Assembly (NCBI GenBank): GCA_026396065.1
Contig: JAPLXO010000003.1
Coordinates: forward strand, 1,304-65,303
Origin: Candidatus Nomurabacteria bacterium
Lineage (GTDB): Bacteria; Patescibacteriota; Minisyncoccia; Phycocordibacterales; UBA9973
DNA length: 64,000 nucleotides
Direction of reading: 5' to 3'
In this document: piece after piece, positions 1-53,951 of the stretch
Layout: each line of letters starts with the position of its first letter
How positions within the stretch are numbered: position 1 is the stretch's first letter
The notes under the pieces: generated by a model
Told to the model about the DNA's origin: nothing
Database searches by the model: none
What the model saw: the letters and a program-made list of their open reading frames with translations, nothing else
Program-made: the position numbers and the translations under genes

Positions 1-567
1 CATGAATAATTCCACCGCGGATGCAAAGTCAGCGAGCTGTTTTTTTACGTGTTCTGTATTCTCGGTATCCTCAATGTTCGCAAAGTGCGAATAAATACCA
101 TCAACTTTAATATTGGGCATCTTCGTAAGACGCGCAATGAATTGTGGAATTGAGGAAATTAAAAGACCTTGTCGCCCTAGATTCGCGTCAATCTTAATAT
201 GTATAGGAATTTTTATTTTCTTTTTTTGTCCGATAGCCTGCAGAAGTGCCAGGCGCTCAGTATCACAAATTGTAGGAATTCCTTTTAAGCTAACCAACTC
301 TTCGATGTCGCTTTTTTGAACATAACCAAATACAAGTGTTGGCTTTTTTGAAGCTCTTCTTAATAATCGTAATTCCTCAATATCATCTACCTGGAAATAG
401 TCTGTGTGTGGACTAAGAATTTTTACAACCTCATTCTGCCCGTGTCCGTATGCATTCGCCTTAACAACGCAGGCAATCTTTTTCTTTGGCGCCAGACTTT
501 TAAGCACTTTAAAATTATTTAAAAGTGCCGTTTTTGAGAGCTCAATATATGAGAGAGCTTTTTTCAT
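1..567 (-). CDS. alr: alanine racemase, N-terminal ~189 aa (C-terminus lies beyond window start)
   Basis: Minus-strand translation from ATG (complement of 565-567): MKKALSYIELSKTALLNNFKVLKSLAPKKKIACVVKANAYGHGQ... with PLP-attachment motif VVKANAYGHG. Absent from the ORF track because it runs off the window edge. Confidence 0.75.
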   Translation of the reverse strand, partial: MKKALSYIELSKTALLNNFKVLKSLAPKKKIACVVKANAYGHGQNEVVKILSPHTDYFQVDDIEELRLLRRASKKPTLVFGYVQKSDIEELVSLKGIPTICDTERLALLQAIGQKKKIKIPIHIKIDANLGRQGLLISSIPQFIARLTKMPNIKVDGIYSHFANIEDTENTEHVKKQLADFASAVELFM

Positions 568-762
568 TTATTTAGTATACTCGTGTAATTCATTAATAAT
601 AAAGCCCCGCAAATGCGGAGCTTTATCTATACTAACGATTTCGGAGTTTTGTTTCCTTGCCTGCCTTCTTGGCATGCTTTTTCCTGGCTAGTTTGCGTTT
701 CTTATTCATACGATACGAATAGGATAACACGACTCACCATAATGCGCAAGAATTAGGCTGGA

Positions 763-1323
763 TTACGCTATTGTCGCTATAAGTCTAAGCGCTACATTGA
801 TCTCTTCAATAAACTTGTTCATTGGCTCATCACCCGCTAGCCCAAGTTGCATCCAATGTATGATATCCAAAAACGAGTCGGCTCGATTTTTAGAAAAAGC
901 AGTCATATCTTCATTCGTAAACTCGGAAACTACTTTTTCGCGCTCCGTTGAAAAGGAACAAGCAATATCAACCAGCTGATCACGACCCCACGTACTCTTA
1001 AAGTATTCAGAATTCTTCTCATACTCATCCAGAAGTAGCTCACACGCCCTCTCTACTGACTCATATGCGTCTGACAGGGCTTCTCCGTCAATAACCAAAA
1101 ATGAACCCTCTTTGCACTGTATAATCCGAAGCCAGGTTGATTCACTTTTTATCAATCTTTTAAAAAGCTTCCAGCGATCTTCGGAAATAGCGCTTTTCAC
1201 GCTTTTTACAGCGATTATTTCTGAAATACGAATGCGTGTTTCCACTATCGCATCAATGGGATTCTTACGCTCCTTAAACTCTTCCACGAGTATGCGAATT
1301 ACGTCTGAAGATTTCATCGACAA
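763..1323 (-). CDS. hypothetical protein (186 aa)
   Basis: Long ORF with no recognisable motif. Lies in the module upstream of the R-M cassette. Confidence 0.5.
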   Translation of the reverse strand: MSMKSSDVIRILVEEFKERKNPIDAIVETRIRISEIIAVKSVKSAISEDRWKLFKRLIKSESTWLRIIQCKEGSFLVIDGEALSDAYESVERACELLLDEYEKNSEYFKSTWGRDQLVDIACSFSTEREKVVSEFTNEDMTAFSKNRADSFLDIIHWMQLGLAGDEPMNKFIEEINVALRLIATIA

Positions 1324-1400
1324 TCCTCCTTTTTATATGTTATGTGCTTTTTTTGTTATCGCATGAAGTTGAAAATAAAACAAGCATAAATCTAAATTTA

Positions 1401-1435
1401 TTTTTTATAAAAAGACCCCGAAATATCCGGGGTCT
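1401..1435 (-). terminator. rho-independent terminator for the 1444..2073 gene
   Basis: Hairpin AGACCCCG-aaatatc-CGGGGTCT followed on the minus strand by a T-run. Confidence 0.5.
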
Positions 1436-1443
1436 GAGTTGTA

Positions 1444-2073
1444 TTACCTATCCCTATTTGTAACTGAAAATGCGAGTTCCTCAGCGTCTATCACCTTTTC
1501 AACTGCGAGTGCCGCATTCAGATTCTGTCTTCTTCGCTCAACTATATCTCGAACCGCCTTCCCAAGCTCAAACCAGATTCCTTTCGGTTCGCACTTGGTC
1601 ATACTCATGATTGTTGCGAGATCAGTCTCTTCTATTAAAACAATTTCTGCCTTCTCATACTTACGGTGCCCAGAAACCTTTTGCCCAGAAAAATTAACTG
1701 AGATAAGAACCCACTGCCCCGAACGCGTAAGTCCCCATGAACGAACAACACCATCCAGACAGCAGAATCCTCGCGAAGGTTCGCGGAGGCCACTTCCAGG
1801 GAAGTACTCAATTGCAATACTCGGTTGTGGTTGGAAGATTCCCTGCGTCTTCAGCGAAAAATTTCCATCACTTACTATCTTCGGATTATCTGCATCAATT
1901 TCGTGAAAAAAATCAGCGTTGTGCAGACACTTCAGATGTCCGAGTTCTGGAAGTGTGGATGAATCCAAAAAAGACTTAAGTAGTCCAGCACGAGCTTCTA
2001 AAAGCTCAAACCACTCTTCAAACTCTATCTTATCCTTCCGGACAAATGTCCTTAATCCTTGTAGAGAGGGCAT
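1444..2073 (-). CDS. hypothetical protein (209 aa), GC-richer than genome background
   Basis: ORF with visibly higher GC (~45% by eye) than the ~30% housekeeping genes. No recognisable motif. Confidence 0.5.
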   Translation of the reverse strand: MPSLQGLRTFVRKDKIEFEEWFELLEARAGLLKSFLDSSTLPELGHLKCLHNADFFHEIDADNPKIVSDGNFSLKTQGIFQPQPSIAIEYFPGSGLREPSRGFCCLDGVVRSWGLTRSGQWVLISVNFSGQKVSGHRKYEKAEIVLIEETDLATIMSMTKCEPKGIWFELGKAVRDIVERRRQNLNAALAVEKVIDAEELAFSVTNRDR

Positions 2074-2186
2074 ACCCTCCTCCTTTCGTTGTTAGAGGCT
2101 CACCTCTTAACGCTATTATTCTTATTCAAAGTATTTGGCATGTCAACAAAAAACAACACCAATAAGGTGCTGTTTTTACTAATGCG

Positions 2187-2393
2187 GTGTTTGTTGGACA
2201 AAGTTCGAATGTTTTTCGAGCAAAATCCAAATGATTAAAAATACTAATGCGGACGAGGCAAGGCGAAACTATTTGTCTGGGGGAATGGATTCGCCTTGCC
2301 TCGGCTGTTTTCCCGCCCGCAGGAGGGGTCTGGGGAGGCATGCGGGCGGGATTTCGGCGGGATTCCTTTTTTCGGAAAAATTCGCACGGGCTT
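2187..2393. repeat. 207-bp inverted repeat copy A (left arm bracketing the C-R-M cassette)
   Basis: Reverse complement matches 4622-4828 at ~96%. Contains an 11-bp GC stem (TCCCGCCCGCA...TGCGGGCGGGA). Abuts the MTase stop codon. Confidence 0.85.
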
Positions 2394-3525
2394 AAATCTG
2401 ATTATCAATTTTGAAGTTCTCTAAAATTGCTTTTGCTACTGCATTTGATAAAAATGTTGGAACAGCATTTCCAATTTGTAAATTTCTATCACCCCTAGAA
2501 CCAAAAAATTGATAATCATCGGGGAAGCACTGAATTCTTGCACCCTCTCTTGTCGTTAGTGGTCTTGGTGCTTTTGGATGAATACAACGAGATGATGACG
2601 GGGTGCTAAGATTTCTCGTTATTGTTGTCGCTGGTCGTTTCCACCAAAGACGACAATATGTATTTTTAAAACCTGAGGTTGGGCGTAATTCCTCTGGCAA
2701 ATCTTCTGGCGTTCCACCATCTGGCAATAACTCCATTATTTTTACCAAATTTTCATTATTGTTTGGCGAATTATGATCCATTAGTTTTGTCGGTGCGTTT
2801 TTACGCATAAACTTTTGAAAATCATTTTGTGGTTTAGAAGAATACTCAAAACTTTCTTCGTTTGATTTGATAAAAGGCAAATCGCTTATTGCTTCCTCAA
2901 GTGTTAAATATGGTTTGAGTTTTTTGTTGAACAAATCTGGTTTTTCCTCTGGATTATAATGGGTTGGTTCTGGGTATTCAAAATCAGTTTTAAGTTTTGA
3001 GCCAATAATCACAACCCTCTCCCTTATTTGCGGTGCGCCATAATCGGCGGCATTCAAAAGTCTATATTGAACTTTATATCCTAAAGATTCAAAAAGTGAA
3101 ATAATCGTTTTTAATAATTCGCCACCTTGCATTGATAAAAGACCTTTAACATTTTCAAAAAGAAAAAGTTTTGGATTGAATTCTTTTAGAACACGATAGT
3201 ATTCTTGAAAAAGTTTGCCTCGTGGGTCATCAATCAATCTTTTTCCAACTGTTGAATACGCCTGACATGGTGGTCCTCCAACAATAATATCAATCTCATT
3301 AGGTTTTATATTTAAATCTTTTTCAATTTTTTCAGCGTTAAAATCCTTAATGTCCTCGGCATATACTTTTGCTGTTGGGTGGTTTAATGAATATGCTTTC
3401 GCCATATTTGGCAAAATTTCATTTGCTGCCACTATTTCAAAATTATCATCGTGGGCGAAACCATAGCTTAAACCACCCACGCCTGAAAATAAATCTATTA
3501 CTTTTAGTTTCTTATTTTTACTCAT
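2392..3525 (-). CDS. DNA (cytosine-5)-methyltransferase
   Basis: Motifs FSGVGGLSYGF (motif I), GGPPCQAYS (motif IV), ENV (motif VI) and QIGNAVP (motif X). Confidence 0.9.
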   Translation of the reverse strand: MSKNKKLKVIDLFSGVGGLSYGFAHDDNFEIVAANEILPNMAKAYSLNHPTAKVYAEDIKDFNAEKIEKDLNIKPNEIDIIVGGPPCQAYSTVGKRLIDDPRGKLFQEYYRVLKEFNPKLFLFENVKGLLSMQGGELLKTIISLFESLGYKVQYRLLNAADYGAPQIRERVVIIGSKLKTDFEYPEPTHYNPEEKPDLFNKKLKPYLTLEEAISDLPFIKSNEESFEYSSKPQNDFQKFMRKNAPTKLMDHNSPNNNENLVKIMELLPDGGTPEDLPEELRPTSGFKNTYCRLWWKRPATTITRNLSTPSSSRCIHPKAPRPLTTREGARIQCFPDDYQFFGSRGDRNLQIGNAVPTFLSNAVAKAILENFKIDNQI

Positions 3526-3533
3526 AAAATAAT

Positions 3534-4325
3534 CTAATCAAAATTAATTTCCTTATATTTCATCGGACTTTCTGTAATTTTCCAAATAAAATAATTTTGA
3601 TCAATGTTAAAAACTGTTTGACCTTCCATTTGTTGTCTTGTAATCCAATTTACGCTATCGTCTTCTATTTCATCTAATTTAATAAAGGCAACTTGACCAT
3701 TATATAAATCAAAATGAAGTGCCAAGGTATGATAACCCAAATCACGAAAAACTCTTTTCGCTTCTAAAACTTTGTGTTGTTTAATGTCATTGATTCCCGT
3801 AAAACCTGATTGCATTTCAATTCTAACTTTTTCTTTATCATTGAGTTTAATTTCTAAATCAGCTTTTGGTGTTCTCTTAAAAGTTTCAATATTTTTTAAG
3901 TCGTCGTCGCCAATCAAATCTATACTTGAAGTATCAACTTCAAAAACCAAGCCAAGTGCTTTCAAAAAATAATTTGATAAAACATAACCTCTCATCCAAG
4001 AGTAATAAACTTGCTCTGGTCGTCTGCCTTGATTATTTAAAACTGGCAAAATATTGTTCGCTTTCATAATTTCAAAAGTTCTTTCAATATGTTCTTTTTT
4101 GAAAGCAACAATATCGTCAAGTTTTATTTCTTTGGCGACGACATCATTTATTTTATCAATTATGTTATAAAGTCTTTTGTTTAATAACTCAATGTAATTC
4201 AAATCAACCGTCGGGGTAATGTCTTTTGCCCCAAAAAAGTTTTTGACATCTGCTTGGTTTGAAAAACCAAGTTTTTGTCTGTATTGACGAAAATATTCAG
4301 CTGTAATTGTAATTTGTCTAGGCAT
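3534..4325 (-). CDS. putative type II restriction endonuclease (partner of the adjacent m5C MTase)
   Basis: 263-aa ORF lying between the C gene and the MTase in the same orientation with 4-8 bp spacers. The call rests on operon context only. Confidence 0.5.
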   Translation of the reverse strand: MPRQITITAEYFRQYRQKLGFSNQADVKNFFGAKDITPTVDLNYIELLNKRLYNIIDKINDVVAKEIKLDDIVAFKKEHIERTFEIMKANNILPVLNNQGRRPEQVYYSWMRGYVLSNYFLKALGLVFEVDTSSIDLIGDDDLKNIETFKRTPKADLEIKLNDKEKVRIEMQSGFTGINDIKQHKVLEAKRVFRDLGYHTLALHFDLYNGQVAFIKLDEIEDDSVNWITRQQMEGQTVFNIDQNYFIWKITESPMKYKEINFD

Positions 4326-4329
4326 AATT

Positions 4330-4524
4330 TTATTTTATTAAATCCTCTATTGATACATTTAATGCTTTCGCAATTTTTTTAATTGTATCAATTGTTGGGT
4401 TTTGTTGCTTGCCAGCTTCAATGTTTATTATCGTATTATTGGAAACATCAGCAAGACGAGCCAGCTTTTCTTGCGATAAACCTAATTTTTCCCTTATTCG
4501 TTTAATTTTGCTTGACTCTAACAT
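4330..4524 (-). CDS. XRE-family HTH protein, probable R-M controller (C) protein
   Basis: 64 aa with a helix-turn-helix (LGLSQEKLARLADVSNNTIINIE). It is the first gene of the C-R-M operon. Confidence 0.6.
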   Translation of the reverse strand: MLESSKIKRIREKLGLSQEKLARLADVSNNTIINIEAGKQQNPTIDTIKKIAKALNVSIEDLIK

Positions 4525-4594
4525 ATTGAAATAGTAATATTATATTGTGGTATAATTATTATATGCTCCAACTAAACAACCACAATATAATATT
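4512..4594. promoter_or_regulatory. operator/promoter region upstream of the C gene
   Basis: 15-bp perfect inverted-repeat arms AATATTATATTGTGG (4536-4550) and CCACAATATAATATT (4580-4594). On the + strand: TTGACT-17-TAATAT (4512-4540) and an extended -10 TGGTATAAT (4549-4557). Confidence 0.3.
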
Positions 4595-4621
4595 ACCAAA
4601 ATATTTGTCTTTCGTAAAGGA

Positions 4622-4828
4622 AAGCCCGTGCGAATTTTTCCGAAAAAAGGAATCCCGCCGAAATCCCGCCCGCATTCCTCCCCAGACCCCTCCTGCGGGC
4701 GGGAAAACAGCCGAGGCAGGGCGAATCCAAAACCCCAGACAAATAGTTTCGCCTTGCCTCGTCCGCATTAGTATTTTTAATCATTTGGATTTTGCTCGAA
4801 AAACATTCGAACTTTGTCCAACAAACAC
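4622..4828. repeat. 207-bp inverted repeat copy B (right arm of the C-R-M cassette)
   Basis: Matches the reverse complement of 2187-2393. One nucleotide separates it from the 91-bp repeat. Confidence 0.85.
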
Positions 4829-4829
4829 G

Positions 4830-4920
4830 GCCAAAATTGAAAATCGGAATCGGAAGCCGAAATGGGGTCGGCACGAAGTGCCGACACAAATGTATTCCCC
4901 CCAAAAAATCCTGAATCTGA
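4830..4920. repeat. 91-bp inverted repeat, left arm flanking the serine recombinase gene
   Basis: Exact reverse complement of 6320-6410, verified base by base. The similarity continues imperfectly to ~4935. Confidence 0.9.
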
Positions 4921-4966
4921 AAGGGTTCGCCACGCTCCGCGTGGCTCCTCGTTTGCCAATACAATT

Positions 4967-6421
4967 ATGAATAATCAAACCAAAAAGTTTTTCATTTATA
5001 CTCGCAAGTCTACGGACGACAAAGACAGACAAGTTCGCAGTATTTCTGACCAATTATCGGAATTGAAAAGTTTAGCGTTGAAAGAACAAATTGATGTTGT
5101 TGATGTCTTTGTCGAAAAGCAGACCGCCAAAATACCAGGTCGCCCTGTGTTTAACGAAATGATGTTGAGAATGGAAGCGGGCGAAGCGTCTGGTATTTTG
5201 GCGTGGCATCCCGATAGACTTGCGAGAAATAGTGTTGATGGTGGGAAAATTATTTACCTCGTTGATACTGGCGTAATCGTGGAAATGAAATTCCCAACTT
5301 TTTGGTTTGATCCGACGCCGCAAGGCAAATTCATGCTCTCAATCGCTTTTTCGCAATCCAAGTATTATGTGGACAATTTGAGCGAGAATATCAAGCGAGG
5401 TCATCGCAACAAAGTGAAAGACGGGATATGGCCTCAAATGGCTCCGCTTGGATATGTAAACAAAAACAGAATGATTGTTCCCGATGAAAATATCGCACCA
5501 CTTATCAAGAAAACATTTGAGGCATATTCAACTGGGTCTTTCACTTTGCGACAACTCCGCGACAAATTTAATGAACTTGGATTGAAACGAAAAAGCGGAA
5601 AGGAACTTGCGGTGTCGAATTATCAAAAACTTTTGAAAAATCCGATATACACGGGCTTGATGTTGTATAACGGCGAAATCCACGAAGGTAAGCACGAGCC
5701 GATTATCATAAAGAAACTTTTTGATTCCGTTCAGGAAGTGATGATGAGAAAATCTAAACCTCACTCGAAAGGTCTAAAACCATTTTTGTATAGAGGATTT
5801 TTCCGTTGTGGAGAATGCGGTTGCTTCATTACTACCGAAACACAAAAGGGTCATAACTATTTGCGATGTACCAAACGGAAAAATCCTTGTTCACAAAAAT
5901 ATACGCGTGAGGAAATCATCACTTCCGAAATTCAAAAAGAAATCAAAAAAGTTTCTTTGCCAGACGATTGGGCTAAATGGATGTTGGCGGAAAACGAAAA
6001 AGACAAATTAGTGGAAGCCCAATCGTCTACGCTTTTTGCCGACAAAACAAAAGCCGATATTTCTCTTTTGGATTCTAAAATTGAGAAGCTGATGAACGCA
6101 TATTTAGAAAACGCACTTTCACTAGACGAGTATCGAGATATGAAAAACAAACTTGTGAATGAAAAACAGCTTCTCAAAGAGAAATTATCGGCTTTTGAGC
6201 AAAAAGCGAATAATCGGTTCGAACTTACCGAAAAGTTTTTGAAATACAATATAGAATTGGCAAACGAGGGAATAAATGAAGAGAAACTTCATTTATTCAA
6301 AAAAGTCGGTTCGAACTTTTCAGATTCAGGATTTTTTGGGGGGAATACATTTGTGTCGGCACTTCGTGCCGACCCCATTTCGGCTTCCGATTCCGATTTT
6401 CAATTTTGGCGGAGGCGGTGA
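4967..6421 (+). CDS. large serine recombinase (resolvase/invertase catalytic domain, recombinase domain, zinc ribbon and coiled coil)
   Basis: FFIYTRKSTDDKDRQVRSISDQ (catalytic Ser region). Cys cluster CGECGCF...C..RKNPC. Coiled-coil C-terminal region. The ORF track opens at 4862 inside the repeat; ATG at 4967 (MNNQTKK) is the more plausible start. The stop overlaps the tRNA 3' end. Confidence 0.85.
   Translation: MNNQTKKFFIYTRKSTDDKDRQVRSISDQLSELKSLALKEQIDVVDVFVEKQTAKIPGRPVFNEMMLRMEAGEASGILAWHPDRLARNSVDGGKIIYLVDTGVIVEMKFPTFWFDPTPQGKFMLSIAFSQSKYYVDNLSENIKRGHRNKVKDGIWPQMAPLGYVNKNRMIVPDENIAPLIKKTFEAYSTGSFTLRQLRDKFNELGLKRKSGKELAVSNYQKLLKNPIYTGLMLYNGEIHEGKHEPIIIKKLFDSVQEVMMRKSKPHSKGLKPFLYRGFFRCGECGCFITTETQKGHNYLRCTKRKNPCSQKYTREEIITSEIQKEIKKVSLPDDWAKWMLAENEKDKLVEAQSSTLFADKTKADISLLDSKIEKLMNAYLENALSLDEYRDMKNKLVNEKQLLKEKLSAFEQKANNRFELTEKFLKYNIELANEGINEEKLHLFKKVGSNFSDSGFFGGNTFVSALRADPISASDSDFQFWRRR
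6320..6410. repeat. 91-bp inverted repeat, right arm
   Basis: Reverse complement of 4830-4920. It encodes the last ~30 aa of the recombinase ORF and ends in TGGC, which is the complement of the tRNA discriminator and CCA. Confidence 0.9.
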
Positions 6422-6496
6422 GATTCGAACTCACGGACCCCGTAAAGAGTCTCTTGTTTTCAAGACAAGTGCCTTCAACCACTCAGCCACGCCTCC
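6407..6496 (-). tRNA. tRNA-Ser(TGA)
   Basis: Sequence GGAGGCGTGGCTGAGTGGTTGAAGGCACTTGTCTTGAAAACAAG...GTGAGTTCGAATCTCACCGCCTCCGCCA. Long variable arm, anticodon loop cTTGAAa, G73, encoded CCA. Confidence 0.85.
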
Positions 6497-6690
6497 TCCG
6501 CATTTCATGCGTCGTCGGCGTGGCTTCGTGTCCTCCGGACACTCCCTATATCTTCGTGATAAATCACATCAGATATTTCTGCTAAAGCAGAAACGGATTA
6601 AACATGAAGCAGTTCATGTTTAATAGCACACGCCTCCATACACTCAATTACATTACCAAAAAATGCATTTTTATGCTAGTCTTTTGGTGT

Positions 6691-7137
6691 ATGAGACTTC
6701 TTGGTATAGATTATGGAATGAAAAGAATAGGAGTGGCTATTTCTGACGAAGGAGGCACTTTGGCATTTCCAAAAGAAATTATTGCCAATGGACAAAAACT
6801 TAACCCACTAAAAAGAATAGGAGAAATAATAAAACAAGAGAAAATTTCTGAAATTGTCGTCGGTGAATCGGTGGATTTTTCTGGTAGTTTAAATATGCTA
6901 ATGGCGCATATTGAGCTTTTTATTGGAGAGCTTGAAAACGAATTTCATTTGCCAGTACACAAACAAAAAGAATTCTTGACATCCGTCGAAGCAAGGCGTT
7001 CCAAAGACGGCAAAAAAGATGCCAGCCCTTCTCAAGCTCGAAGTCGACTCAAAAGTACAAAAGCTGGCAGGGTAGATGCTTCAGCTGCAGCACTTATTTT
7101 ACAAAGATATTTAGACAAGATTAATCAAGCAAAATAA
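6691..7137 (+). CDS. ruvX: Holliday junction resolvase-like protein RuvX/YqgF
   Basis: MRLLGIDYGMKRIGVAISDE... RNase H-like N-terminus. The C-terminus has a DASAAALILQRYL signature. The ORF track opens at 6604; ATG at 6691 is the preferred start. Confidence 0.8.
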   Translation: MRLLGIDYGMKRIGVAISDEGGTLAFPKEIIANGQKLNPLKRIGEIIKQEKISEIVVGESVDFSGSLNMLMAHIELFIGELENEFHLPVHKQKEFLTSVEARRSKDGKKDASPSQARSRLKSTKAGRVDASAAALILQRYLDKINQAK

Positions 7138-7163
7138 TTTTTTAAAACAGGTATAATTTATTT

Positions 7164-8822
7164 ATGGAATCTGAAACAAGAAATTGTAAATATTGTAAAA
7201 CTCAATTTGAAATAACAGAGAGGGAAATGAGTATGTACGAGAAAATCAATCTAATGATTCCTGATATCTGCGTACCATGTCGCTGGAAACAACACATGGC
7301 TTTTTGGCCATTCGGAAAATTCCGAACTGGTGTGAGTGATTTGTCTGGAGAAAGATTGATTACTGTTTTGCCGGCCAATGCACGCTACCCAATTTATACT
7401 TCCAAAGAATGGTGGAGTGACGCTTGGGATGCGATGACCCACGGACAAGATTATGATTCAAGCCGTTCATTTTTTGATCAATTAAAAGAATTACAAGAAA
7501 AAGTTCCTCGTCCACATCAACAAGGTGCACAAAGTTTAAATTGCGATTGGTGTGATGATGCTTGGGAATCTAAAAATTGTTACTTGAGTCGTTCTACATT
7601 AAGAGCTGAAAATCTTTTCTATGGATATCGTTCTATAGATTGTAAAGACTCGATAGATGTTTCTCATGTTTTTACACTTGACCAGTGTTACGACTGCACT
7701 TATTGCTTCACTTCATATAATTTATTTTTTTCAAAAAATTGTCGAGACTGTCTTGATAGCGCTTTTTTATTTGATTGTCGAAATTCAAACCACTGTTTTA
7801 TGTGTTGGAATCTTCGAGGAAAATCATACTGCATAGAAAATGTTCAATATACAAAAGAAGCTTATGAAGAAAAAATGAAAGAAATAAATTTTGGTTCTAA
7901 TATTGAACTTCAAAAATACAAAGATAGATATGAAGAAATTTTAAGAAAAAATGTAGTGCATCGAGAAAATTTTAATATAAAAACTTATGATTCTCTGGGA
8001 ACATATATGACGAATTGCAAAAATTGTGTAAATGTATTTTCTTGGGAAGATTCTGAAAATTGTACCAATTGTTTGCGTGGTTTGAAGTCAAAAGATTCTA
8101 TTGATATGGTTGGTTGTTGGAATATGGAATTATCCGGTAATGATAGTTGTTGTACAAACGCTTATGATTTAAAATATTCTATTTGGTGTGATGGTGCTAG
8201 ATATTCTGAATATTGTGATCAATGCGTTGAAATAGAAAATTGTTTTGGTTGTGTCAGTCTTCGTAAGAAAAAATATTGTATTTTAAATAAACAATATAGT
8301 AAAGAAGAATACGAAGTTTTGAAAGAAAAAATTATTTCAGATATGAAAGAGCGAGGTGAATACGGACAATTTCCTCCGTATTCAATGGGTCTTTGCCCAT
8401 ATAATTTTTCTACTTCAGCAATTTATTCTCCAGACGTTACAAAAGAATACGTAGAGGCGTTGAGAGGATATTGGGAAGATAATAAAGATGAAAAAATAGA
8501 AGGATTAACTACAGAACAAATTCCAGATTCAATTACAGAAGTGGATGAATCATTTTCAAAGCAAGCACTCATTTGTCCTATTACTGGTTGGAGGTACAAC
8601 ATTGCCGAAGGGGAGCTCGCATTCTTGAAAAGAAAAAATATTTCAATCCCTCGTGTACATTTTGATGTGCGAACTAAAAATCGTTTATCTATTCTCAGTC
8701 AAACAAAAAGTGAAGCATATACTTGCACTTATTGTTCAAAAAATATTATTGCTTATTATCCAAAAGATTGGGGTTATGAATATATTGCTTGTGAGCACTG
8801 TTATTTAAAAGAGATTGCTTAG
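7164..8822 (+). CDS. cysteine-rich repeat protein of unknown function (552 aa)
   Basis: Dozens of Cys arranged in recurring NCxxC / CxxC...YC..N.QYSKEEYE units. No family recognised. Confidence 0.6.
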   Translation: MESETRNCKYCKTQFEITEREMSMYEKINLMIPDICVPCRWKQHMAFWPFGKFRTGVSDLSGERLITVLPANARYPIYTSKEWWSDAWDAMTHGQDYDSSRSFFDQLKELQEKVPRPHQQGAQSLNCDWCDDAWESKNCYLSRSTLRAENLFYGYRSIDCKDSIDVSHVFTLDQCYDCTYCFTSYNLFFSKNCRDCLDSAFLFDCRNSNHCFMCWNLRGKSYCIENVQYTKEAYEEKMKEINFGSNIELQKYKDRYEEILRKNVVHRENFNIKTYDSLGTYMTNCKNCVNVFSWEDSENCTNCLRGLKSKDSIDMVGCWNMELSGNDSCCTNAYDLKYSIWCDGARYSEYCDQCVEIENCFGCVSLRKKKYCILNKQYSKEEYEVLKEKIISDMKERGEYGQFPPYSMGLCPYNFSTSAIYSPDVTKEYVEALRGYWEDNKDEKIEGLTTEQIPDSITEVDESFSKQALICPITGWRYNIAEGELAFLKRKNISIPRVHFDVRTKNRLSILSQTKSEAYTCTYCSKNIIAYYPKDWGYEYIACEHCYLKEIA

Positions 8823-8834
8823 TTATGATATAAT

Positions 8835-9209
8835 GTGCAAATGATATCTTTTGAAGATTTTAAAAAAGTTGATATGGCAGTAGGGCAGATTTTGTCTGCT
8901 GAAAAAGTGCCCGAGACGGACAAGCTTTTAAAGTTGTCTGTAGATTTTGGTTCTGTTTTTACAGAAAATGCAGAAGGATTGAAAGAAGAAAAAAAAGATA
9001 TTCGTCAAATTGTTTCCGGCATCTCACTTTATTTTCCTGACCATTCTGTATTAGTCGGCAAGAAATGTATGTTTGTCACAAATCTCGAACCACGCATGAT
9101 AAAAGGCCTCGAAAGTCAGGGGATGATACTCGCCGTTTCTACAGAAGATGGAAAGTTTTCTCTACTTGAACCTAATAATGATATTCCTATTGGAACAAGA
9201 GCTAAATAA
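8835..9209 (+). CDS. tRNA-binding domain protein (CsaA/Trbp111/MetG C-terminal-domain-like)
   Basis: ISFEDFKKVDMAVGQILSAEKVPETDKLLKLSVDFG... typical EMAP/Myf fold signature. Confidence 0.7.
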   Translation: MQMISFEDFKKVDMAVGQILSAEKVPETDKLLKLSVDFGSVFTENAEGLKEEKKDIRQIVSGISLYFPDHSVLVGKKCMFVTNLEPRMIKGLESQGMILAVSTEDGKFSLLEPNNDIPIGTRAK

Positions 9210-9215
9210 ATAGAG

Positions 9216-9809
9216 ATGGAATTTCTTCAAATTACACCACTTATAACCACCTTCGGATTGATCGGAATTTTTACGATAGTATTCGCGGAGTCCGGCTTAT
9301 TTTTCGGTTTTCTTTTGCCGGGGGATTCATTACTAGTCACTGCTGGAATTTTTGCCTCGGCAGGACATTTCAATATAGTAGTATTATTACTTGGTACGTT
9401 TATTTTTGCAGTCCTCGGAGATAGTGTAGGCTATTGGACAGGAAAGAAATTTGGACAGAAAATATTTTCACGACCAAATTCATTTTTCTTTAATAAAAAG
9501 AATCTGGATAAAACAAAAGAGTTTTATGAAAAATACGGAAAGAAAACGGTCACATTGGCTCGTTTTGTACCGATGATACGTACGTTTGCACCGATTATGG
9601 CAGGTACAGCGAATATGCCGTATAAAGATTTTTTATTTTATAATATTTTAGGTGGATTTTTATGGACTGGCAGTATGATCATGATAGGTTACTTTTTAGG
9701 TAATAGTATTGAAAATATCGATGGGTATATTTTTCCAATTACAATATTCATAATAGGTCTTTCTGTTGTTCCGGTAGTTATTGGACTAATTCGAAAGAAA
9801 AAACAATAA
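9216..9809 (+). CDS. DedA family membrane protein
   Basis: GDSLLVTAGIFA...LARFVPMIRTFAPIMAGTANMPYKDF motif. Confidence 0.8.
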   Translation: MEFLQITPLITTFGLIGIFTIVFAESGLFFGFLLPGDSLLVTAGIFASAGHFNIVVLLLGTFIFAVLGDSVGYWTGKKFGQKIFSRPNSFFFNKKNLDKTKEFYEKYGKKTVTLARFVPMIRTFAPIMAGTANMPYKDFLFYNILGGFLWTGSMIMIGYFLGNSIENIDGYIFPITIFIIGLSVVPVVIGLIRKKKQ

Positions 9810-9861
9810 TTTGTTGATATTGCATTTTTAAAAAATATCATTTCGGGGTACAATATATATA

Positions 9862-10944
9862 ATGCTTCGCGCTAAATATAATAAATTTTTCCCAATACCA
9901 CATTTTTTATCTCAACCATCTTTTGGTTTAGATATTTCTGATCAATCTATTAAGTTTGTAGAATTTTTAGAAACTCATAAAGGTCTTCGTATTGGTCGCT
10001 TTGGTGAGCGTCCTATTCCAGTAGGTGTGATTGAGTCAGGAAAAATTATAGAATCAAAGCATTTAAAAGAAATTTTATTATTACTTAAAAAAGAATATGG
10101 AATAAAATCTGTGCGCGTGTCTTTACCAGAAGAACAAGTTTATCTTTTTAAATTAAAAATTATTAAAGAATCCACTGTTGATATTCGTCAAACAATCGAA
10201 TTCTCTTTAGAGGAGCACGTTCCTATACCTCCTACTGATTTAGTATTTGATTACGAAATTTTTAAAGAAGATGAAAAAAACATTGAAGTAGAGGTTACTA
10301 CTGCACCAAAACAAATTATTGAAAGCTACCTTTCTATTTTTAGAGATTGCGGACTAAATGTTTCTTCTTTTGAGCTTGAAGCGCAAGCTCTAGCCAGAGC
10401 AGTCATTTTAGATAAAGATTTAGATACTTACATGATAGTTGATTTAGGAAAACAGCGTACTGGTATATCTGTCGTTAGTAATAATATTGTTATTTTTACT
10501 TCCACTGTTGATGCGGGTGGGGTAATGCTTACAAATCTTATTGAAAAAAATTTTAAGATTAGTTTTTTAGATGCAGAAAATATGAAAGTAAAATATGGCC
10601 TTAGTCGAAGTTCAGGGAACCAAGAAGTTTTCTCTGTTCTTTTGAACGGTGTATCTATTATTCGTGATGAAATTAGTAAACATTTTTTATATTGGCATAC
10701 TCATAAAGATGAAGATGGAGAAGTAAGGCCAAAAATAAAAAAAATAATTCTGTGCGGTGGTGATTCAAATTTGATTGGTTTTGCGGAGTATCTCTCTATT
10801 AGTATGAAACAAAATGTAGAGATTGCTAATGTCTGGCGAAATGTTATTTCGCCAGATGAGTATATTCCAGAGATGTCTTTTCAGGATTCCTTGAGTTATG
10901 CTACAGCAATAGGATTAGCATTAAGAGATTTATATTATGATTAA
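9862..10944 (+). CDS. pilM: type IV pilus assembly ATPase-like protein PilM
   Basis: N-terminal FGLDISDQSIKFVEF (actin-like fold), ~360 aa, followed by pilN/pilO-like genes. Confidence 0.75.
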   Translation: MLRAKYNKFFPIPHFLSQPSFGLDISDQSIKFVEFLETHKGLRIGRFGERPIPVGVIESGKIIESKHLKEILLLLKKEYGIKSVRVSLPEEQVYLFKLKIIKESTVDIRQTIEFSLEEHVPIPPTDLVFDYEIFKEDEKNIEVEVTTAPKQIIESYLSIFRDCGLNVSSFELEAQALARAVILDKDLDTYMIVDLGKQRTGISVVSNNIVIFTSTVDAGGVMLTNLIEKNFKISFLDAENMKVKYGLSRSSGNQEVFSVLLNGVSIIRDEISKHFLYWHTHKDEDGEVRPKIKKIILCGGDSNLIGFAEYLSISMKQNVEIANVWRNVISPDEYIPEMSFQDSLSYATAIGLALRDLYYD

Positions 10945-11479
10945 TTTATTACCATTAGAAGAAAAAGATAAAATTTCTACAGAGTATATTTTTCGCATTG
11001 TCTCTTTTTATTTTTATGTATTTGGAACGTGTTTTTTTGTTGCTAGTATTACTTTACTTCCAGCTTACTTTTTTTCGTCTGTTAGAGAGAATTTAGCAAT
11101 TGAAAAATTACAAAATTTAAAAGATTTGCCAGTTACAGAATTAGATCATGAGACAAATAATGCTATACAAGATGTTAATTCAAAAGTCTCCATAATTGAA
11201 AATGCTGAAAAAAATAAATTTCTAGTTTTAGAAAATATGATAAATGAAATCATTTTTAAAAAAATGACAGATATAAAAATAATGCAATTTGATTACAAAA
11301 AAGATAAAGATGGTTTAAAAACATTAAATTTACATGGTTTGGCCCCAAATCGCGAACGTTTGCTTTTGTTTAGACAAACACTTGAATCAGATAAAATGTT
11401 TTCACATATAGATCTTCCAATTTCAAACTTTGTTAAAGGTGCGAATATAGATTTTAGTTTAAATTTAACATTTTTGTAA
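10937..11479 (+). CDS. pilN: PilN-like pilus assembly protein
   Basis: Starts MINLLP, then a single TM helix. Overlaps the pilM stop by 8 nt. Confidence 0.55.
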   Translation: MINLLPLEEKDKISTEYIFRIVSFYFYVFGTCFFVASITLLPAYFFSSVRENLAIEKLQNLKDLPVTELDHETNNAIQDVNSKVSIIENAEKNKFLVLENMINEIIFKKMTDIKIMQFDYKKDKDGLKTLNLHGLAPNRERLLLFRQTLESDKMFSHIDLPISNFVKGANIDFSLNLTFL

Positions 11480-11480
11480 T

Positions 11481-12026
11481 ATGAAAAAATTAAACAAATT
11501 TTTAATAAAAATATTTATAGCACTTTTGTTTATTATACTTTCAATAGTTGGTTTTTTTTATATTTTTAATAGCATTAAATCCAAGAATGATAATACTACT
11601 AATTTATTAACACAGGCACAAGATGAATCTGATCGTCGTAATAATATTGAAAAATTAAACGTTCAAATAAAAGCAATAGCCCCACAAAGAAAAATGCTTG
11701 AAACGCATTTTGCTAAGAGTTCAGATGTTGTTACTTTTTTAGATAATTTACAAAATTTAGGCAAGCTTGCTAAGGCCCCAGTTGAAATTTTTTCCGTAGA
11801 TTTAGATAAAGATAACTCTCTTTTGAAAGTACAAATGAGTGCAAAAGGAAGCTTTATAGCCATTCACAACCTTTTTTATCTTTTACAAAATTCTCAATAT
11901 GAACTTGATTTTTCAGCTGTAAATCTACAAACAACTACAGGGTCATCTGATTCAACAAAAAATGTCAGTAATATTCAACAATGGCAAGCCAATTTTTCTT
12001 TAACATTACTTAGTTTTAATTTTTAA
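11481..12026 (+). CDS. PilO-like pilus assembly protein
   Basis: N-terminal TM helix followed by a coiled coil. Position after pilM and pilN. Confidence 0.4.
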   Translation: MKKLNKFLIKIFIALLFIILSIVGFFYIFNSIKSKNDNTTNLLTQAQDESDRRNNIEKLNVQIKAIAPQRKMLETHFAKSSDVVTFLDNLQNLGKLAKAPVEIFSVDLDKDNSLLKVQMSAKGSFIAIHNLFYLLQNSQYELDFSAVNLQTTTGSSDSTKNVSNIQQWQANFSLTLLSFNF

Positions 12027-12030
12027 AAAT

Positions 12031-12348
12031 ATGGATTTAAAATTTTTTACAATAAAAAAGAAAATTAATTTGATTAAAAAGAAAAAAATATTTAATCCAC
12101 TAATACATTGGAATATTTCTCTTTACGTATTTTTCATTTCTATTGCAATTTCTTCTGTTTTTGGTTTTTATCTTTTTTTACAAGTGAATAAAGCATTAGA
12201 TTTGGTTTCTGTAAATAAAGAAAATCCCACAATTCATAAAGTTAACGTAAAAGGTATTCAAAAAGTATTAGATCTTTTTTCTAATAATGAAAAAAGATCA
12301 ACAGATATTTTAGCTAATCCATCTAACATAACTGACCCATCTATATAG
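12031..12348 (+). CDS. small membrane protein, hypothetical
   Basis: 105 aa with one TM helix. Last gene of the pil cluster. Confidence 0.4.
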   Translation: MDLKFFTIKKKINLIKKKKIFNPLIHWNISLYVFFISIAISSVFGFYLFLQVNKALDLVSVNKENPTIHKVNVKGIQKVLDLFSNNEKRSTDILANPSNITDPSI

Positions 12349-12397
12349 ATTAAAGAAAGAATTAGCCATTATTTTAATGGCCACGAGTATTTTTTTG

Positions 12398-12469
12398 TGC
12401 CTTTGGTAGGAATCGAACCTACATCAAAGCCTTAGAAGAGCTCTGTTCTATCCATTGAACTACAAAGGC
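12398..12469 (-). tRNA. tRNA-Arg(TCT)
   Basis: GCCTTTGTAGTTCAATGGATAGAACAGAGCTCTTCTAAGGCTTTGATGTAGGTTCGATTCCTACCAAAGGCA. Anticodon loop cTTCTAa. Cloverleaf folds. Confidence 0.75.
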
Positions 12470-12473
12470 AGTG

Positions 12474-12546
12474 TGCGAGGTACAGGACTCGAACCTGTGA
12501 CCTTCCCGGTGTAAACGGGTTGCTCTACCAACTGAGCTAACCTCGC
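12474..12546 (-). tRNA. tRNA-Val(TAC)
   Basis: GCGAGGTTAGCTCAGTTGGTAGAGCAACCCGTTTACACCGGGAAGGTCACAGGTTCGAGTCCTGTACCTCGCA. Anticodon loop tTTACAc. Confidence 0.8.
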
Positions 12547-12734
12547 AATGTGTATTAAGTTTTAATATAACCTTTATTTTGCTAATTGGTTCCATACCTA
12601 CCAAAACAGCTAACCTCGCAAAATTCAAAAAAACAATTTTTTTTGAAGGTTTCTAAAGTATACGCTAAAATGTGAATTTTTCAAGTCCTGATATAAGTTT
12701 TTACTTTTTAATGTTTTTGTGGTAGAGTATTTTT

Positions 12735-29115: not shown

Positions 29116-30288
29116 ATGAAAGATACACAAATAAAAAAACTAATACAATTAGAGGGGAAGAGACAAAAGAGCGTCATAAACCTAATTGCTTCGGAGAATT
29201 ATGTTTCCAAAGATGTTTTGGAAGCTCTCGGTTCAGTACTTACAAATAAATACGCAGAAGGGTACCCAGGCCGTCGATATTACGGCGGAAATGAAATTAT
29301 CGATAAAGTTGAAAGTTTGGCAATTGCTCGAGCTTTAAAACTTTTCAAATTAAAAACTGACGCATGGCATGTGAATGTTCAGCTCCTTTCAGGAAGTCCA
29401 GCGAATTTTGCATTATATTCTGCTTTAATTCCACTTGGTGGAAAAATAATGGGAATGAAATTATCTTCTGGGGGGCACCTTACTCATGGTTATCCACTTT
29501 CGATGACAGGAAAACTTTGGAAATCTGTTCAATACGAAGTCGATCCGAAAATGGAAGTGATAGATTATTCTGCTGTTGAAAAATTGGCACTGCAAGAAAA
29601 ACCAGATATTATTGTTTGTGGTTATACTGCTTATCCACGAACTGTGGACTTCAAAAAATTCCGAGTGATTGCTGATAAATGCGGAGCACTGCTTCACGTA
29701 GACATGTCGCATTTCGCAGGGCTCGTCGCAGGGGGAGTATACCCATCTCCATTTCTATATGCCGACAGTGTGATGACGACAACTCACAAATCTCTACGTG
29801 GTCCGAGACAAGCGATTCTCTTTGTAAAAAAAGACGAGAGAGGATTCGACAAGAAACTCGACAAGATGGTTATTCCTGGACTCTTTGGTGGACCGCATGA
29901 AAATAATATTGCTGGAGTTGCGATTGCACTCAAAGAAGCCGACACTCCAGCCTTTAAAAAATATGCAAAACAAGTTGTAAAAAACGCACAAACACTTTCA
30001 AAAGAATTACAAAAACTTGGTTGGAAAATTATTTCTGGCGGTACCGATTCACATTTGATATTAATGGAAACTTTTCTATCAGGGGGAATTTCTGGCGCTG
30101 AAGCTAGTAAAAAACTCGAGAAAGCTGGGATTATTGTAAACATGAATACTGTCCCAGGGGACACACGAGGTGTGATGGATCCATCTGGTATTCGACTAGG
30201 CACTTGCGCAGAGACAACAATAGGGAAAAAAGAAAAAGATATGATTAAGATTGCACAAAAGATGAACAAGGTCTTAAGAAGGAAATAA
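29116..30288 (+). CDS. glyA: serine hydroxymethyltransferase
   Basis: LIASENYVSKDVLEALGS...YPGRRYYGG; PLP-Lys region TTTHKSLRGPR. Confidence 0.9.
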   Translation: MKDTQIKKLIQLEGKRQKSVINLIASENYVSKDVLEALGSVLTNKYAEGYPGRRYYGGNEIIDKVESLAIARALKLFKLKTDAWHVNVQLLSGSPANFALYSALIPLGGKIMGMKLSSGGHLTHGYPLSMTGKLWKSVQYEVDPKMEVIDYSAVEKLALQEKPDIIVCGYTAYPRTVDFKKFRVIADKCGALLHVDMSHFAGLVAGGVYPSPFLYADSVMTTTHKSLRGPRQAILFVKKDERGFDKKLDKMVIPGLFGGPHENNIAGVAIALKEADTPAFKKYAKQVVKNAQTLSKELQKLGWKIISGGTDSHLILMETFLSGGISGAEASKKLEKAGIIVNMNTVPGDTRGVMDPSGIRLGTCAETTIGKKEKDMIKIAQKMNKVLRRK

Positions 30289-53805: not shown

Positions 53806-53865
53806 TACTTTAAATTTAGAATGTGTTCACAAAAAAAAATGTTAAATACAGTTAAAAAAACTTTG

Positions 53866-53951
53866 CGGAAGCGGTGAGATTCGAACTCACGGTCCTTTAA
53901 AGGGACGGCGGTTTAGTAAACCGCTGCCTTAAACCACTCGGCCACGCTTCC
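53866..53951 (-). tRNA. type-II tRNA (Ser-like; long variable arm, G73) whose anticodon reads ACT
   Basis: GGAAGCGTGGCCGAGTGGTTTAAGGCAGCGGTTTACTAAACCGCCGTCCCTTTAAAGGACCGTGAGTTCGAATCTCACCGCTTCCG. Perfect 5-bp anticodon stem GCGGT/ACCGC with loop TTACTAA. Confidence 0.6.

Follow-up and report, generated by a model that had tools for sequence, protein, structure and literature searches.

How should one classify a serine recombinase gene that is enclosed by long, perfect inverted repeats and runs into a tRNA-Ser gene? The question is raised by a locus in a 64-kb stretch of DNA from Candidatus Nomurabacteria (hereafter the window, meaning the whole stretch that was analysed). The original prediction offered two answers: an autonomous, IS-like element that uses tRNA-Ser as its target, or the recombinase and attachment-site module of a larger unit. 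The evidence assembled here favours the second, and places the locus in a widespread and apparently undescribed family of small mobile elements at tRNA-Ser 3' ends in Patescibacteria (CPR).

Anatomy of the insertion

As first proposed, the gene at 4967-6421 (plus strand) encodes a large serine recombinase (LSR). Its 484-aa product combines Resolvase (PF00239, E 2e-18), Recombinase (PF07508, E 2e-13) and zinc-ribbon (Zn_ribbon_recom, PF13408, E 4e-7) domains, the architecture of this protein class, and the motif YTRKST can be read near the N-terminus. The protein is distantly related to SPbeta SprA, A118 Int, TP901-1 Int, CcrB and XisF; relatives in plasmid and phage collections are at most 29% identical, and none was found in IMG/VR, which leaves no evidence for a phage-borne element. 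Exact-protein look-ups returned no record for the window LSR, in its 484-aa and 519-aa versions, or for its 552-aa neighbour. The best NCBIfam match, CcrB, scores 92 bits against a cut-off of 900 (CcrA, 57 against 700; CcrC, 36 against 900), so the LSR is no Ccr protein; with scores below the curated cut-offs and tRNA-Ser rather than rlmH as the target, an SCC (Ccr) element was rejected as an identity for the locus.

The perfect inverted repeat around this gene is real and, at 93 nt, 2 nt longer than first described: its arms, B (4830-4922, plus strand) and B' (6318-6410, minus strand), are 100% complementary, and the recombinase ORF alone lies between them, as claimed. Other inverted repeats in the first 12 kb reach at most 31 nt at 70-85%, except for a 210-nt pair at 97%, formed by A' (2184-2393) and A (4622-4831, plus strand). 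Rather than standing 1 nt away from this second repeat, B overlaps A by 2 nt, so that the two are halves of one contiguous unit of ~300 nt. Neither repeat has a further copy in the 64-kb window. A contains two GC-rich hairpins and the 'a' half-site ATTCGAACTTTGTCCAACAAACA, and loops within it read CCCCAGAC; a terminator-like hairpin faces inward in both A (4649-4667, minus strand) and A' (2348-2366, plus strand). B, which serves as the 5' leader of the LSR gene, includes a hairpin (TCGGCAC-GAAG-GTGCCGA) whose pairing is preserved through compensatory changes. An Rfam search of positions 1-13000 at E values up to 1 returned only tRNAs and left A and B unmatched; the GC-rich arms are thus unexplained by known RNA families.

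The two arm pairs belong to a single insertion of 4.2 kb (2184-6410) that reads, from left to right, A', a cargo of HTH and restriction-modification (R-M) genes, A joined to B, the LSR gene, and B' joined to the tRNA gene. The second option of the original prediction is therefore the one that holds, the larger unit being one that includes the R-M cassette. First among the cargo genes, and divergent from the LSR gene, is that of a 64-aa XRE-type HTH protein (4330-4524, minus strand; Pfam HTH_3, E 5e-20). Between it and the gene for a C-5 cytosine DNA methyltransferase (2392-3525, minus strand; PF00145, E 8e-79) sits a 263-aa ORF (3534-4325, minus strand) that matches neither Pfam nor NCBIfam and is presumed, by position only, to encode the restriction endonuclease. 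These three and the LSR gene are the ORFs of the insertion; a Tn3-family transposon, with its DDE transposase and ~38-bp terminal inverted repeats, was rejected because a transposase gene is absent from 2184-6410. A look-up of the cargo methyltransferase recovered only 2.2-kb contigs broken at the A arms, and many contigs break at arms.

Read from the tRNA gene, the order becomes a tRNA-B junction, the LSR gene (antisense to the tRNA), B'·A', the HTH gene with the remaining cargo, and a junction of A with X, the host DNA beside the far end. In these terms the tRNA-B junction is attL, with B' of the window as its element half; the A-X junction is attR, with A' as the outer arm bounding the cargo; and A·B, between LSR and cargo, is an intact but inverted attP-like site of which A supplies the left half and B the right. 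Since the halves of A·B recur inverted at both ends, the pairs B/B' and A'/A together amount to a split attP, in which each half is set opposite the corresponding half of the intact internal copy.

Attachment sites at the tRNA-Ser 3' end

At the right end, B' abuts tRNA-Ser(TGA) (6407-6496, minus strand; ARAGORN), in agreement with the proposal that tRNA-Ser is the target. The TGGC that closes this arm (6407-6410) does complement the discriminator G and CCA, and the recombinase stop codon (TGA, 6419-6421) does fall inside the tRNA gene; analysis of the tail indicates that the ORF, lacking a stop codon of its own, runs on through B' and past the crossover site of the element. Junction alignment places the core of attL at 6409-6412 (minus strand; GCGG on the plus strand, CCGC in the tRNA reading direction), the last four bases of the tRNA gene (CC, the discriminator G and C74). 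The far boundary, thought to lie left of ~700, is actually the core of attR at 2184-2187 (minus strand; again GCGG on the plus strand and CCGC in the tRNA reading direction), exactly where a stretch of 99.86% identity to another locus (L094) ends. The direct repeat of the tRNA 3' end that was expected to mark this boundary does not exist, as the two ends have only the 4-nt core CCGC in common. Beyond it lies X (2150-2183, minus strand), with a minus-strand terminator-like hairpin and T run (ATTAGTAAAAACAGCACCTTATTGGTGTTGTTTTTT). The core of the internal attP-like site (4828-4831, plus strand) reads CGGC in place of CCGC, with a mismatch to A' at 4829.

A search for an empty tRNA-Ser site in related strains had been proposed, and two such sites were found that fix the element boundaries. 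One is in L005, which precisely lacks unit 2 of a tandem pair of units found in L001 and reads CATATTTGC followed directly by GGAGAGAAAGGG. The other is shared by L094, L095, L097 and L098, in which tRNA-Ser(GCT) ends in CCTCCGC and continues directly into ATTAGTAAAAACA, the X sequence, at the point where the window and L096 have A'. CCGC occurs in all aligned tRNA-B, A-B and A-X junctions except the internal site of the window (CGGC); a few CGGC/CCGC rows among the left-hand junctions were mis-anchored matches inside B and were discounted. It is also the sole sequence common to the tRNA-X, A-B, tRNA-B and A-X junctions, the pattern of hybrid sites that identifies a serine-integrase element.

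A second signature concerns the spacing of the half-sites. The motif TTCGAA stands 11 nt from the core in ~60 tRNA arms and 16 nt from it in ~45 A arms, a 5-bp outward shift that matches the rule described for the A118 integrase, whose attP half-site motif is displaced 5 bp outward relative to that of attB (PMC3783163). TTCGAA may be the motif bound by the zinc ribbon; the host-side half-site in X is not conserved. Two further sites of the same kind stand unoccupied in the window, at tRNA-Ser(ACT) (53865-53951, minus strand; CTTCCGC followed by AAAGTTTTTTT) and at tRNA-Ser(GCT) (54014-54103, plus strand; GCTCCGC followed by AAAGG).

The window copy shows signs of decay. In alignments to homologues, whose B arm measures 120 nt, its B' is shortened by a 54-nt in-frame deletion, and its LSR lacks 18 conserved residues in the interval from GSNF to SDSGFF; an AlphaFold model of a full-length homologue (mean pLDDT 50, below 50 at residues 430-502) is of too low confidence to place these residues in the fold. 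Given this deletion and the mutated internal core, the element is probably inactive. The flanks also disagree: the left, with a GC content of 40%, is 99.9% identical to an organism other than the source of the right (GC 34%). The contig is probably a chimera that merges the element copies of two organisms, joined through the element. A metagenome scan with a right-flank protein (7164-8822) gave relatives that are 75-80% identical and share no tRNA-side synteny, and decides the matter neither way. The joining of DNA from two organisms across the element, together with the contig breaks at arms, could suggest that the inverted repeat itself is an assembler or amplification-chimera artefact, yet the double inverted-repeat layout recurs with element-specific arm sequences in more than 50 assemblies that are independent and stem from different projects, including contigs of 0.8-0.9 Mb and two records titled 'chromosome: 1' (L009/L047, 743 kb; L080, 993 kb), which reduces the probability of such an artefact almost to nothing.

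A family of elements with arms evolving in concert

The same layout is found in dozens of other genomes, with every tRNA-Ser isoacceptor as neighbour and with varying cargo, and the family numbers at least 310 loci in species-representative genomes. A tRNA-Ser gene stands at the LSR 3' end in 62 of 78 distinct loci (GGA 19, GCT 17, TGA 13, CGA 12, ACT 1), and all 62 tRNAs found beside an LSR are tRNA-Ser; with this specificity, a length of ~500 aa and large-recombinase domains, an IS607-type serine transposon (small recombinase, N-terminal HTH, no terminal inverted repeats, low specificity) was rejected. There is also a further class of targets other than tRNA genes. Layout and core are kept even where the LSR is just 40-60% identical (L060, L074 and unit 2 of L001). 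At the other extreme, recombinases 83-98% identical occur across many named Patescibacteria lineages, which points to frequent recent transfer. A literature search of incomplete coverage found no published description of such tRNA-Ser LSR elements.

Of the 78 distinct loci, 50 have B arms that measure at least 100 nt, with 100% identity in 32, and 25 have A arms that measure at least 140 nt, with at least 99% identity in 21; on the 914-kb contig of L008, beside tRNA-Ser(GGA), A arms of 277 nt and B arms of 120 nt are both perfect. The arm pairs within an element are usually at least 99% identical, whereas between elements the median divergence is about 20% for B arms and about 39% for A arms. 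The arms of each pair evolve in concert. Near-perfect arms are therefore no sign of a recent event, as had been suggested for the window: they are found family-wide and persist despite 20-40% divergence between elements, and the window copy is itself decayed. The arms are perfect exactly as far as the core, and small hairpin loops within them are found in both orientations.

The cargo comprises R-M, metal-resistance and other accessory genes. In a survey of 25 elements, most cargo modules start, beside the A arm, with an HTH ORF of 51-70 aa, and closely related HTHs stand ahead of differing cargo genes. Across genomes the cargo module reassorts and occurs in both orientations: the A'-cargo-A modules of L031 and L035 are 98.5% identical and inverted relative to the LSR, their LSR modules just 85%. 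The LSR module likewise is found away from its usual partners, flanked by two tRNA-Ser genes in L010, L063 and L006 and by two A-type junctions in L035, L091 and L093.

Such separations and the reassortment of LSR and cargo modules are what one would expect if B-LSR-B' alone were an autonomous IS-like unit with terminal inverted repeats of 93-120 nt, and A'-cargo-A a separate passenger inserting beside it. Both presence/absence polymorphisms, however, involve the whole unit A'-cargo-A-B-LSR-B', and an insertion that lacks cargo and joins B' to X was seen in none of the 47 loci with a readable left flank. Serine recombinase sites in inverted orientation yield inversion and no excision, unless the crossover dinucleotide is palindromic, a property that also argues against inverted arms as the ends of a mobile unit. 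The IS-like reading, the first option of the original prediction, is on these grounds unlikely, and assembly in two steps, from one circle with the LSR and another with the cargo, was rejected for want of an LSR-only intermediate.

A further rival is a phase-variable segment, in which the LSR would invert B/B' and A'/A and thereby switch its own expression or that of the R-M genes. Each segment is indeed flanked by long perfect inverted repeats, genomes differ in the orientation of one cargo module, and both orientations are also seen among the small loops of arm hairpins. Against this, among the 64 loci whose only tRNA-type junction is at the LSR 3' end, every LSR is directed toward the tRNA. 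Whole-unit insertion polymorphisms are present, and a flip would leave the junction sequence unchanged, because the segment contains both the cargo genes and their promoter region in full. The protein, moreover, is of the large serine integrase type, unlike Hin/Gin-type invertases. An expression switch of this sort is improbable, and a Hin/Gin/Pin invertase switch was rejected on the large-recombinase domains and the constant orientation in 64/64 loci.

Mechanism and relation to known systems

The reading we prefer, to which we assign a probability of roughly 0.7, is that 2184-6410 is a modular integrative element, driven by its LSR and targeting the tRNA-Ser 3' end. As predicted from sequence, the LSR would catalyse attP x attB integration, with strand exchange within CCGC, a stretch made up of the last two bases of the acceptor stem, the discriminator G and C74. 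The free form would be a circle with two inverted attP copies. In the yeast 2-micron plasmid (Flp/FRT), two long inverted repeats with recombinase sites divide two unique segments, one of which encodes the recombinase; by analogy, the circle would share this two-segment layout. The comparison has limits: Flp belongs to the tyrosine recombinases and its plasmid is an autonomous replicon of a eukaryote, whereas the element has no replication gene and is observed integrated; no circular form was recovered. The circle would integrate via the attP copy downstream of the LSR gene, and the internal site would drive the secondary rearrangements seen, LSR modules with a tRNA-Ser gene on each side and chains in which modules alternate. 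Arm identity might be maintained by gene conversion or by some form of fold-back pairing. Two observations sit uneasily with this model: two usable attP copies in the circle lead one to expect both LSR orientations, in contrast to the single orientation in 64/64 loci, and an intact internal attP should be costly where tRNA-Ser sites are free, as in the window. No recombination directionality factor of a known family was recognised; the only conserved extra gene is that of the XRE-type HTH, of ~65-70 aa, and directionality factors are too diverse for a role as one to be dismissed.

Fold-back pairing could also carry a larger role. Competent cells import DNA in single-stranded form, and on such a strand A'/A and B/B' might pair, rebuilding a duplex attP, juxtaposing the ends for ligation and homogenising the arms through mismatch correction. 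The concerted arms, perfect exactly to the core, the intra-arm hairpins that keep their pairing via compensatory changes, and the failure to find a directionality factor gene would all fit. The idea is purely inferential, though, and ordinary gene conversion between inverted repeats is a simpler account of identical arms; by our own reasoning, if a folded strand underwent double-strand exchange, the chromosome would be left with hairpin-capped ends, which makes a prior conversion to duplex necessary, and direct LSR integration of a folded single strand was rejected on this chemistry. We regard a fold-back cycle as unlikely. If it were true, any chromosome fragment taken up by a cell could yield an excised and circularised element with no need for a directionality factor, and the element would be one adapted to spread among CPR bacteria through natural transformation.

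The preferred integrative element resembles several known systems and coincides with none of those compared. Like the Prochlorococcus tycheposons, it is modular, cargo-carrying and tRNA-targeted in streamlined genomes; according to the part of the preprint consulted, tycheposons use tyrosine recombinases in 910 of 937 cases and many carry replication genes, whereas the present element uses an LSR, and that part of the source makes no mention of an inverted attP architecture (bioRxiv 10.1101/2020.12.28.424599). With the A118, TP901-1, SPbeta SprA, phiC31 and Bxb1 systems it shares the Resolvase, Recombinase and zinc-ribbon architecture, hybrid attL and attR sites around the insert, few common bases at the crossover, and a recognition motif that is placed 5 bp farther out in the site of the element than in that of the host. 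It departs from them in its low identity (at most 29%), its lack of phage genes and of IMG/VR relatives, the intact inverted attP that it retains when integrated, the absence of a recognisable directionality factor, a recombinase ORF that spans its own crossover site without a stop codon of its own, and a target at the extreme 3' end of tRNA-Ser.

As in SCCmec (CcrAB/CcrC), a conserved gene receives variable cargo at its 3' end through a large serine recombinase, and tandem arrays form at the site (L001, L091). Unlike SCCmec, which uses rlmH, the element targets a tRNA gene, and it is far smaller (3-9 kb); we know of no SCC feature that corresponds to an internal inverted attP with two long arm pairs. 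Hin and Gin are small invertases that act on ~26-bp sites with an enhancer; the element has in common with their segments a serine recombinase gene and inverted repeats that bound a segment, and differs in its large recombinase, arms of 93-280 nt and fixed LSR orientation. To our knowledge, no other serine-integrase element has three sites, an intact inverted attP inside, concerted arm pairs and a recombinase ORF that ends past its own crossover.

The family is a source of chimeric contigs in CPR bins, as the window appears to show, and provides recombinase engineering with many natural attP/attB pairs that target a tRNA gene. Little is known about mobile elements in Patescibacteria, or about gene exchange in these bacteria with their reduced genomes; the anatomy described here may reveal a new mode of control or propagation for serine-integrase elements.

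Junctions and boundaries of an insertion at tRNA-Ser genes

The best-supported reading of the locus, drawn from sequence comparison, is a serine-integrase element that would insert by attP × attB exchange at a 4-nt core, CCGC, of tRNA-Ser genes. Two pairs of inverted repeats organize it in the window: A'/A (2184-2393 and 4622-4831), 210 nt long and 97% complementary, and B/B' (4830-4922 and 6318-6410), 93 nt long and 100% complementary; all other inverted repeats in the first 12 kb are at most 31 nt. B and B' enclose a single gene, a 484-aa ORF (4967-6421) whose Resolvase, Recombinase and zinc-ribbon domains identify it as a large serine recombinase (LSR), and which runs through B' into the gene for tRNA-Ser(TGA) (6407-6496, minus strand; ARAGORN and Rfam). 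The original prediction of a perfect repeat enclosing the recombinase gene only, of a right arm (B') ending in TGGC, the complement of the tRNA discriminator and CCA, and of a recombinase stop codon inside the tRNA gene is borne out by the sequence; the single nucleotide placed between A and B was an error, as the two arm pairs touch, A and B being contiguous with a 2-nt overlap. The segment between A' and A has three genes, all on the minus strand: those for a C5 DNA methyltransferase and for a 64-aa protein with an XRE-type HTH, and a 263-aa ORF that is unassigned.

Read on the minus strand, the tRNA|B junction is ...CTCACCGCCTCCGC-CAAAATTGAAAATCGG and the A|X junction, where X is host DNA at the far end of the element (2150-2183), is ...CCAACAAACACCGC-ATTAGTAAAAACAGCACC...; the internal A|B junction is ...CCAACAAACACGGC-CAAAATTGAAAATCGG. 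Such an arrangement would be expected if tRNA|B and A|X were the attL and attR of an insert; what is unusual is that the insert also contains, in inverted orientation and separating the LSR gene from the cargo, an intact attP-like A|B site. X consists of a terminator-like hairpin and a T run, and its sequence varies between loci. In an alignment of junctions across loci from other genomes (labeled L001-L101), CCGC, which corresponds to the final two bases of the acceptor stem, the discriminator G and C74, is present at every junction of all three types (tRNA|B, A|B, A|X) with a single exception: the internal A|B of the window has CGGC. The tRNA arm consists of GGTTCGAATCC and 8 nt before CCGC, and the A arm of (A/T)TTCGAAC-TT(C/T)GTCCAA(C/T)A(A/C)ACA before CCGC, with TTCGAA 11 and 16 nt from the core, respectively. 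For the A118 integrase, the zinc-ribbon motif of attB lies 5 bp nearer the centre than that of attP (PMC3783163); the same 5-bp shift fits A as the attP-type and the tRNA end as the attB-type arm, and TTCGAA would be the motif that is actually bound.

Empty sites define the extent of the mobile unit. L001 carries two units in tandem, of which the tRNA-proximal one is precisely absent from a sister sample, L005 (...CATATTTGC|GGAGAGAAAGGGATTCGAACCC). The exact protein of window ORF 1444-2073 is also encoded on contigs L094, L095, L097 and L098; L094 matches window 1-2187 with 99.86% identity, the match ending at the core, and at this position the four contigs have a tRNA-Ser(GCT) (...GGTTCGAATCCTTTCGCCTCC-GC-ATTAGTAAAAACA). 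L096, which belongs to an NCBI genome bin, has A' at the same point, like the window. What moves is therefore the block A'-cargo-A|B-LSR-B' in its entirety, 2184-6410 in the window. A rival account would have the LSR gene, alone between its B arms, move as an autonomous IS-like module; among the loci classed by junction, no LSR-only insertion was seen.

B is present in several sequence variants. At three loci (L028, ~11500-11700; L017, ~640-800; L079, ~3580-3800) it is joined at CCGC to a third partner, ...GTGTCTCATTTGTCTCATT..TTTTAGACCCCGACC..GGGTAC(T/C)TAAC..GC|CCGC, which corresponds to the LSR protein tails RATRVKYP and RDTWVKCL; it matched no tRNA, tmRNA or Rfam family and may be an uncharacterized conserved non-coding locus. 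Two tRNA-like targets without an ARAGORN call (L001, 4160-4285; L080, about 11504-11560), exemplified by GGAGAGA...GAGTTCGAATCTCCCTCTCTCCGC of about 125 nt, may be degenerate or atypical tRNA-Ser genes. The window itself holds two unoccupied sites (...CCGC|AAAG) called by ARAGORN: a tRNA-Ser with anticodon ACT (53865-53951, minus strand), divergent from a tRNA-Ser(GCT) (54014-54103, plus strand). A serine tRNA with A at position 34 is unusual; the same pair occurs in L045, L063, L068 and L085, and in L010 the element has the ACT gene as its target.

Distribution of the layout and maintenance of its arms

The 120 best protein relatives of the window LSR are 83-95% identical to it and, where organism names are given, belong to Patescibacteria (Shapirobacteria, Pacebacteria, Liptonbacteria and Minisyncoccia, for example). 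Their ORFs also cross a B'-like tail, and most then extend into tRNA-like sequence. A scan of species-representative genomes yielded 310 stretches encoding close LSR relatives, a few of them assigned to other phyla by record title only; 80 were retrieved. Over 78 distinct loci, a tRNA-Ser gene abuts the LSR 3' end in 62 (GGA 19, GCT 17, TGA 13, CGA 12, ACT 1), B arms of at least 100 nt are present in 50 (32 of them 100% and 39 at least 99% identical), and A arms of at least 140 nt in 25 (21 at least 99% identical). The layout, found across many loci, occurs on a 914-kb contig (L008) and on records titled 'chromosome: 1' (L047, 743 kb; L080, 993 kb), and both the double repeat and the core are kept with LSRs only 40-60% identical (L060, L074 and the second unit of L001), which rules out an assembly artefact as the origin of the repeat itself.

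Within an element the arms are usually at least 99% identical, whereas between elements the median identities are 80% for B and 61% for A. Arm identity is thus maintained over time and is no gauge of insertion age, and the recent event once read from the identical arms finds no support. Pairing in the B hairpin TCGGCAC-GAAG-GTGCCGA is kept by compensatory changes at three pairs (11-26 of 53 sequences), with mispaired positions only in L064, a sequence that does not align with the others; an A-arm hairpin has four compensated pairs, and every A arm has a terminator-like hairpin facing the cargo. A single-strand fold-back device is another rival reading, and an unlikely one.

Some elements have reverse-complemented hairpin loops on unchanged stems (TCC vs GGA or AGA), located at alignment columns 164-172 of B hairpin 2 and 73-93 of A hairpin 1, with the whole 21-nt loop of the latter reverse-complemented in L090; these look like local loop inversions at palindromes. 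The loops of both GC-rich A hairpins (window 4668-4708 and 4712-4762, and mirror positions in A') contain CCCCAGAC, to which the HTH protein, or some other factor, could bind.

A recombinase frame across the crossover site, and exchange of modules

Diversity at LSR codon positions 1/2/3 has a typical coding pattern over codons 1-450 (0.107/0.067/0.272), is flat over codons 451-468 (0.111/0.117/0.095), and is high and nearly flat in the tail, codons 469-498 (0.239/0.219/0.305). Despite this, the tail frame is open up to the core in 46/46 sequences, the two alternative frames having stops in 24/46 and 46/46. The LSR stop codon hence always comes from DNA beyond the crossover point: the tRNA gene in most cases, and A' in about 15 of 120 proteins (tail ...FWRCLLDKVRNYFEQNPND).

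The cargo is diverse, including type II restriction-modification systems, RadC, heavy-metal transport, membrane proteins and nitroreductase, among others. In a survey of 25 elements, the gene that opens most cargo modules, beside an A arm, encodes an XRE-type HTH protein of 51-70 aa and, in the usual cargo orientation, diverges from the LSR gene; since near-identical HTHs (83-95%) precede different cargo genes, the HTH gene is part of the element backbone. Counted per fetched locus, with repeat samplings of one element included, 46 loci have the usual A|B...B'|tRNA junctions, and in 18 more the right junction is tRNA-type and the contig ends short of the left one. Three distinct cases have tRNA-Ser genes on both sides of the LSR, and in L035 both of its junctions are A-type. 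Outside this count, both junctions are A-type in L093 and, around a more distant LSR, in L074, and in L091 modules alternate in a chain. An A'-cargo-A module, 98.5% identical and inverted relative to the LSR, is common to L031 and L035, their LSR modules being just 85% identical. Inverted modules also figure in a further rival, the invertible switch; the LSR is directed toward the tRNA in 64/64 loci (the 46 and the 18).

L101 (895-990) is degenerate: in place of the usual A and cargo left of B it has only a short piece, some 45-55 nt, of an inverted A end and 21 nt of unrelated sequence, and it may be a cargo-less or decayed derivative. L009 (18101-18414) has a perfect 157-nt tandem duplication adjoining a tRNA-Ile(TAT) gene.

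The window copy and a proposed mechanism

The window LSR lacks 18 residues (IIEARTVLFEPRGAWRTL) nearly invariant in the family, owing to an in-frame loss of 54 nt, which is also why B' measures 93 rather than 120 nt, and its A and A' identity of just 97% is among the four lowest values of the surveyed loci. The left flank (1-2183; GC 40%) is 99.86% identical to L094 (GC 41.5%). The right flank (6497-64000; GC 33.8%) has a tRNA-Ser(GCT) different from that of L094 and an SHMT gene (29122-30276) only 59.7% identical to its SHMT. These comparisons indicate that the two flanks derive from different organisms, with X coming from the tRNA-Ser(GCT) site of one and tRNA-Ser(TGA) from another; most simply, the contig is probably a chimera in which nearly identical copies of the element formed the join.

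The window recombinase is a deep-branching LSR: its phage and plasmid relatives are at most 29% identical, its best solved-structure matches are SPbeta SprA and the A118 integrase, and CcrB and XisF models match it far below their cut-offs. In the literature searched, neither an architecture of three sites and a double inverted repeat nor this CPR family of elements is described. The element works like a serine-integrase island and like SCC elements, which accrete at one site, and resembles tycheposons (bioRxiv 10.1101/2020.12.28.424599) at least in carrying cargo at tRNA genes. Exchange of attL with attR would excise a circle made of two unique segments and carrying attP twice, in inverted orientation; the observed integrated form would arise when the attP lying downstream of the LSR gene is the one used, and the secondary rearrangements would be due to the internal copy.
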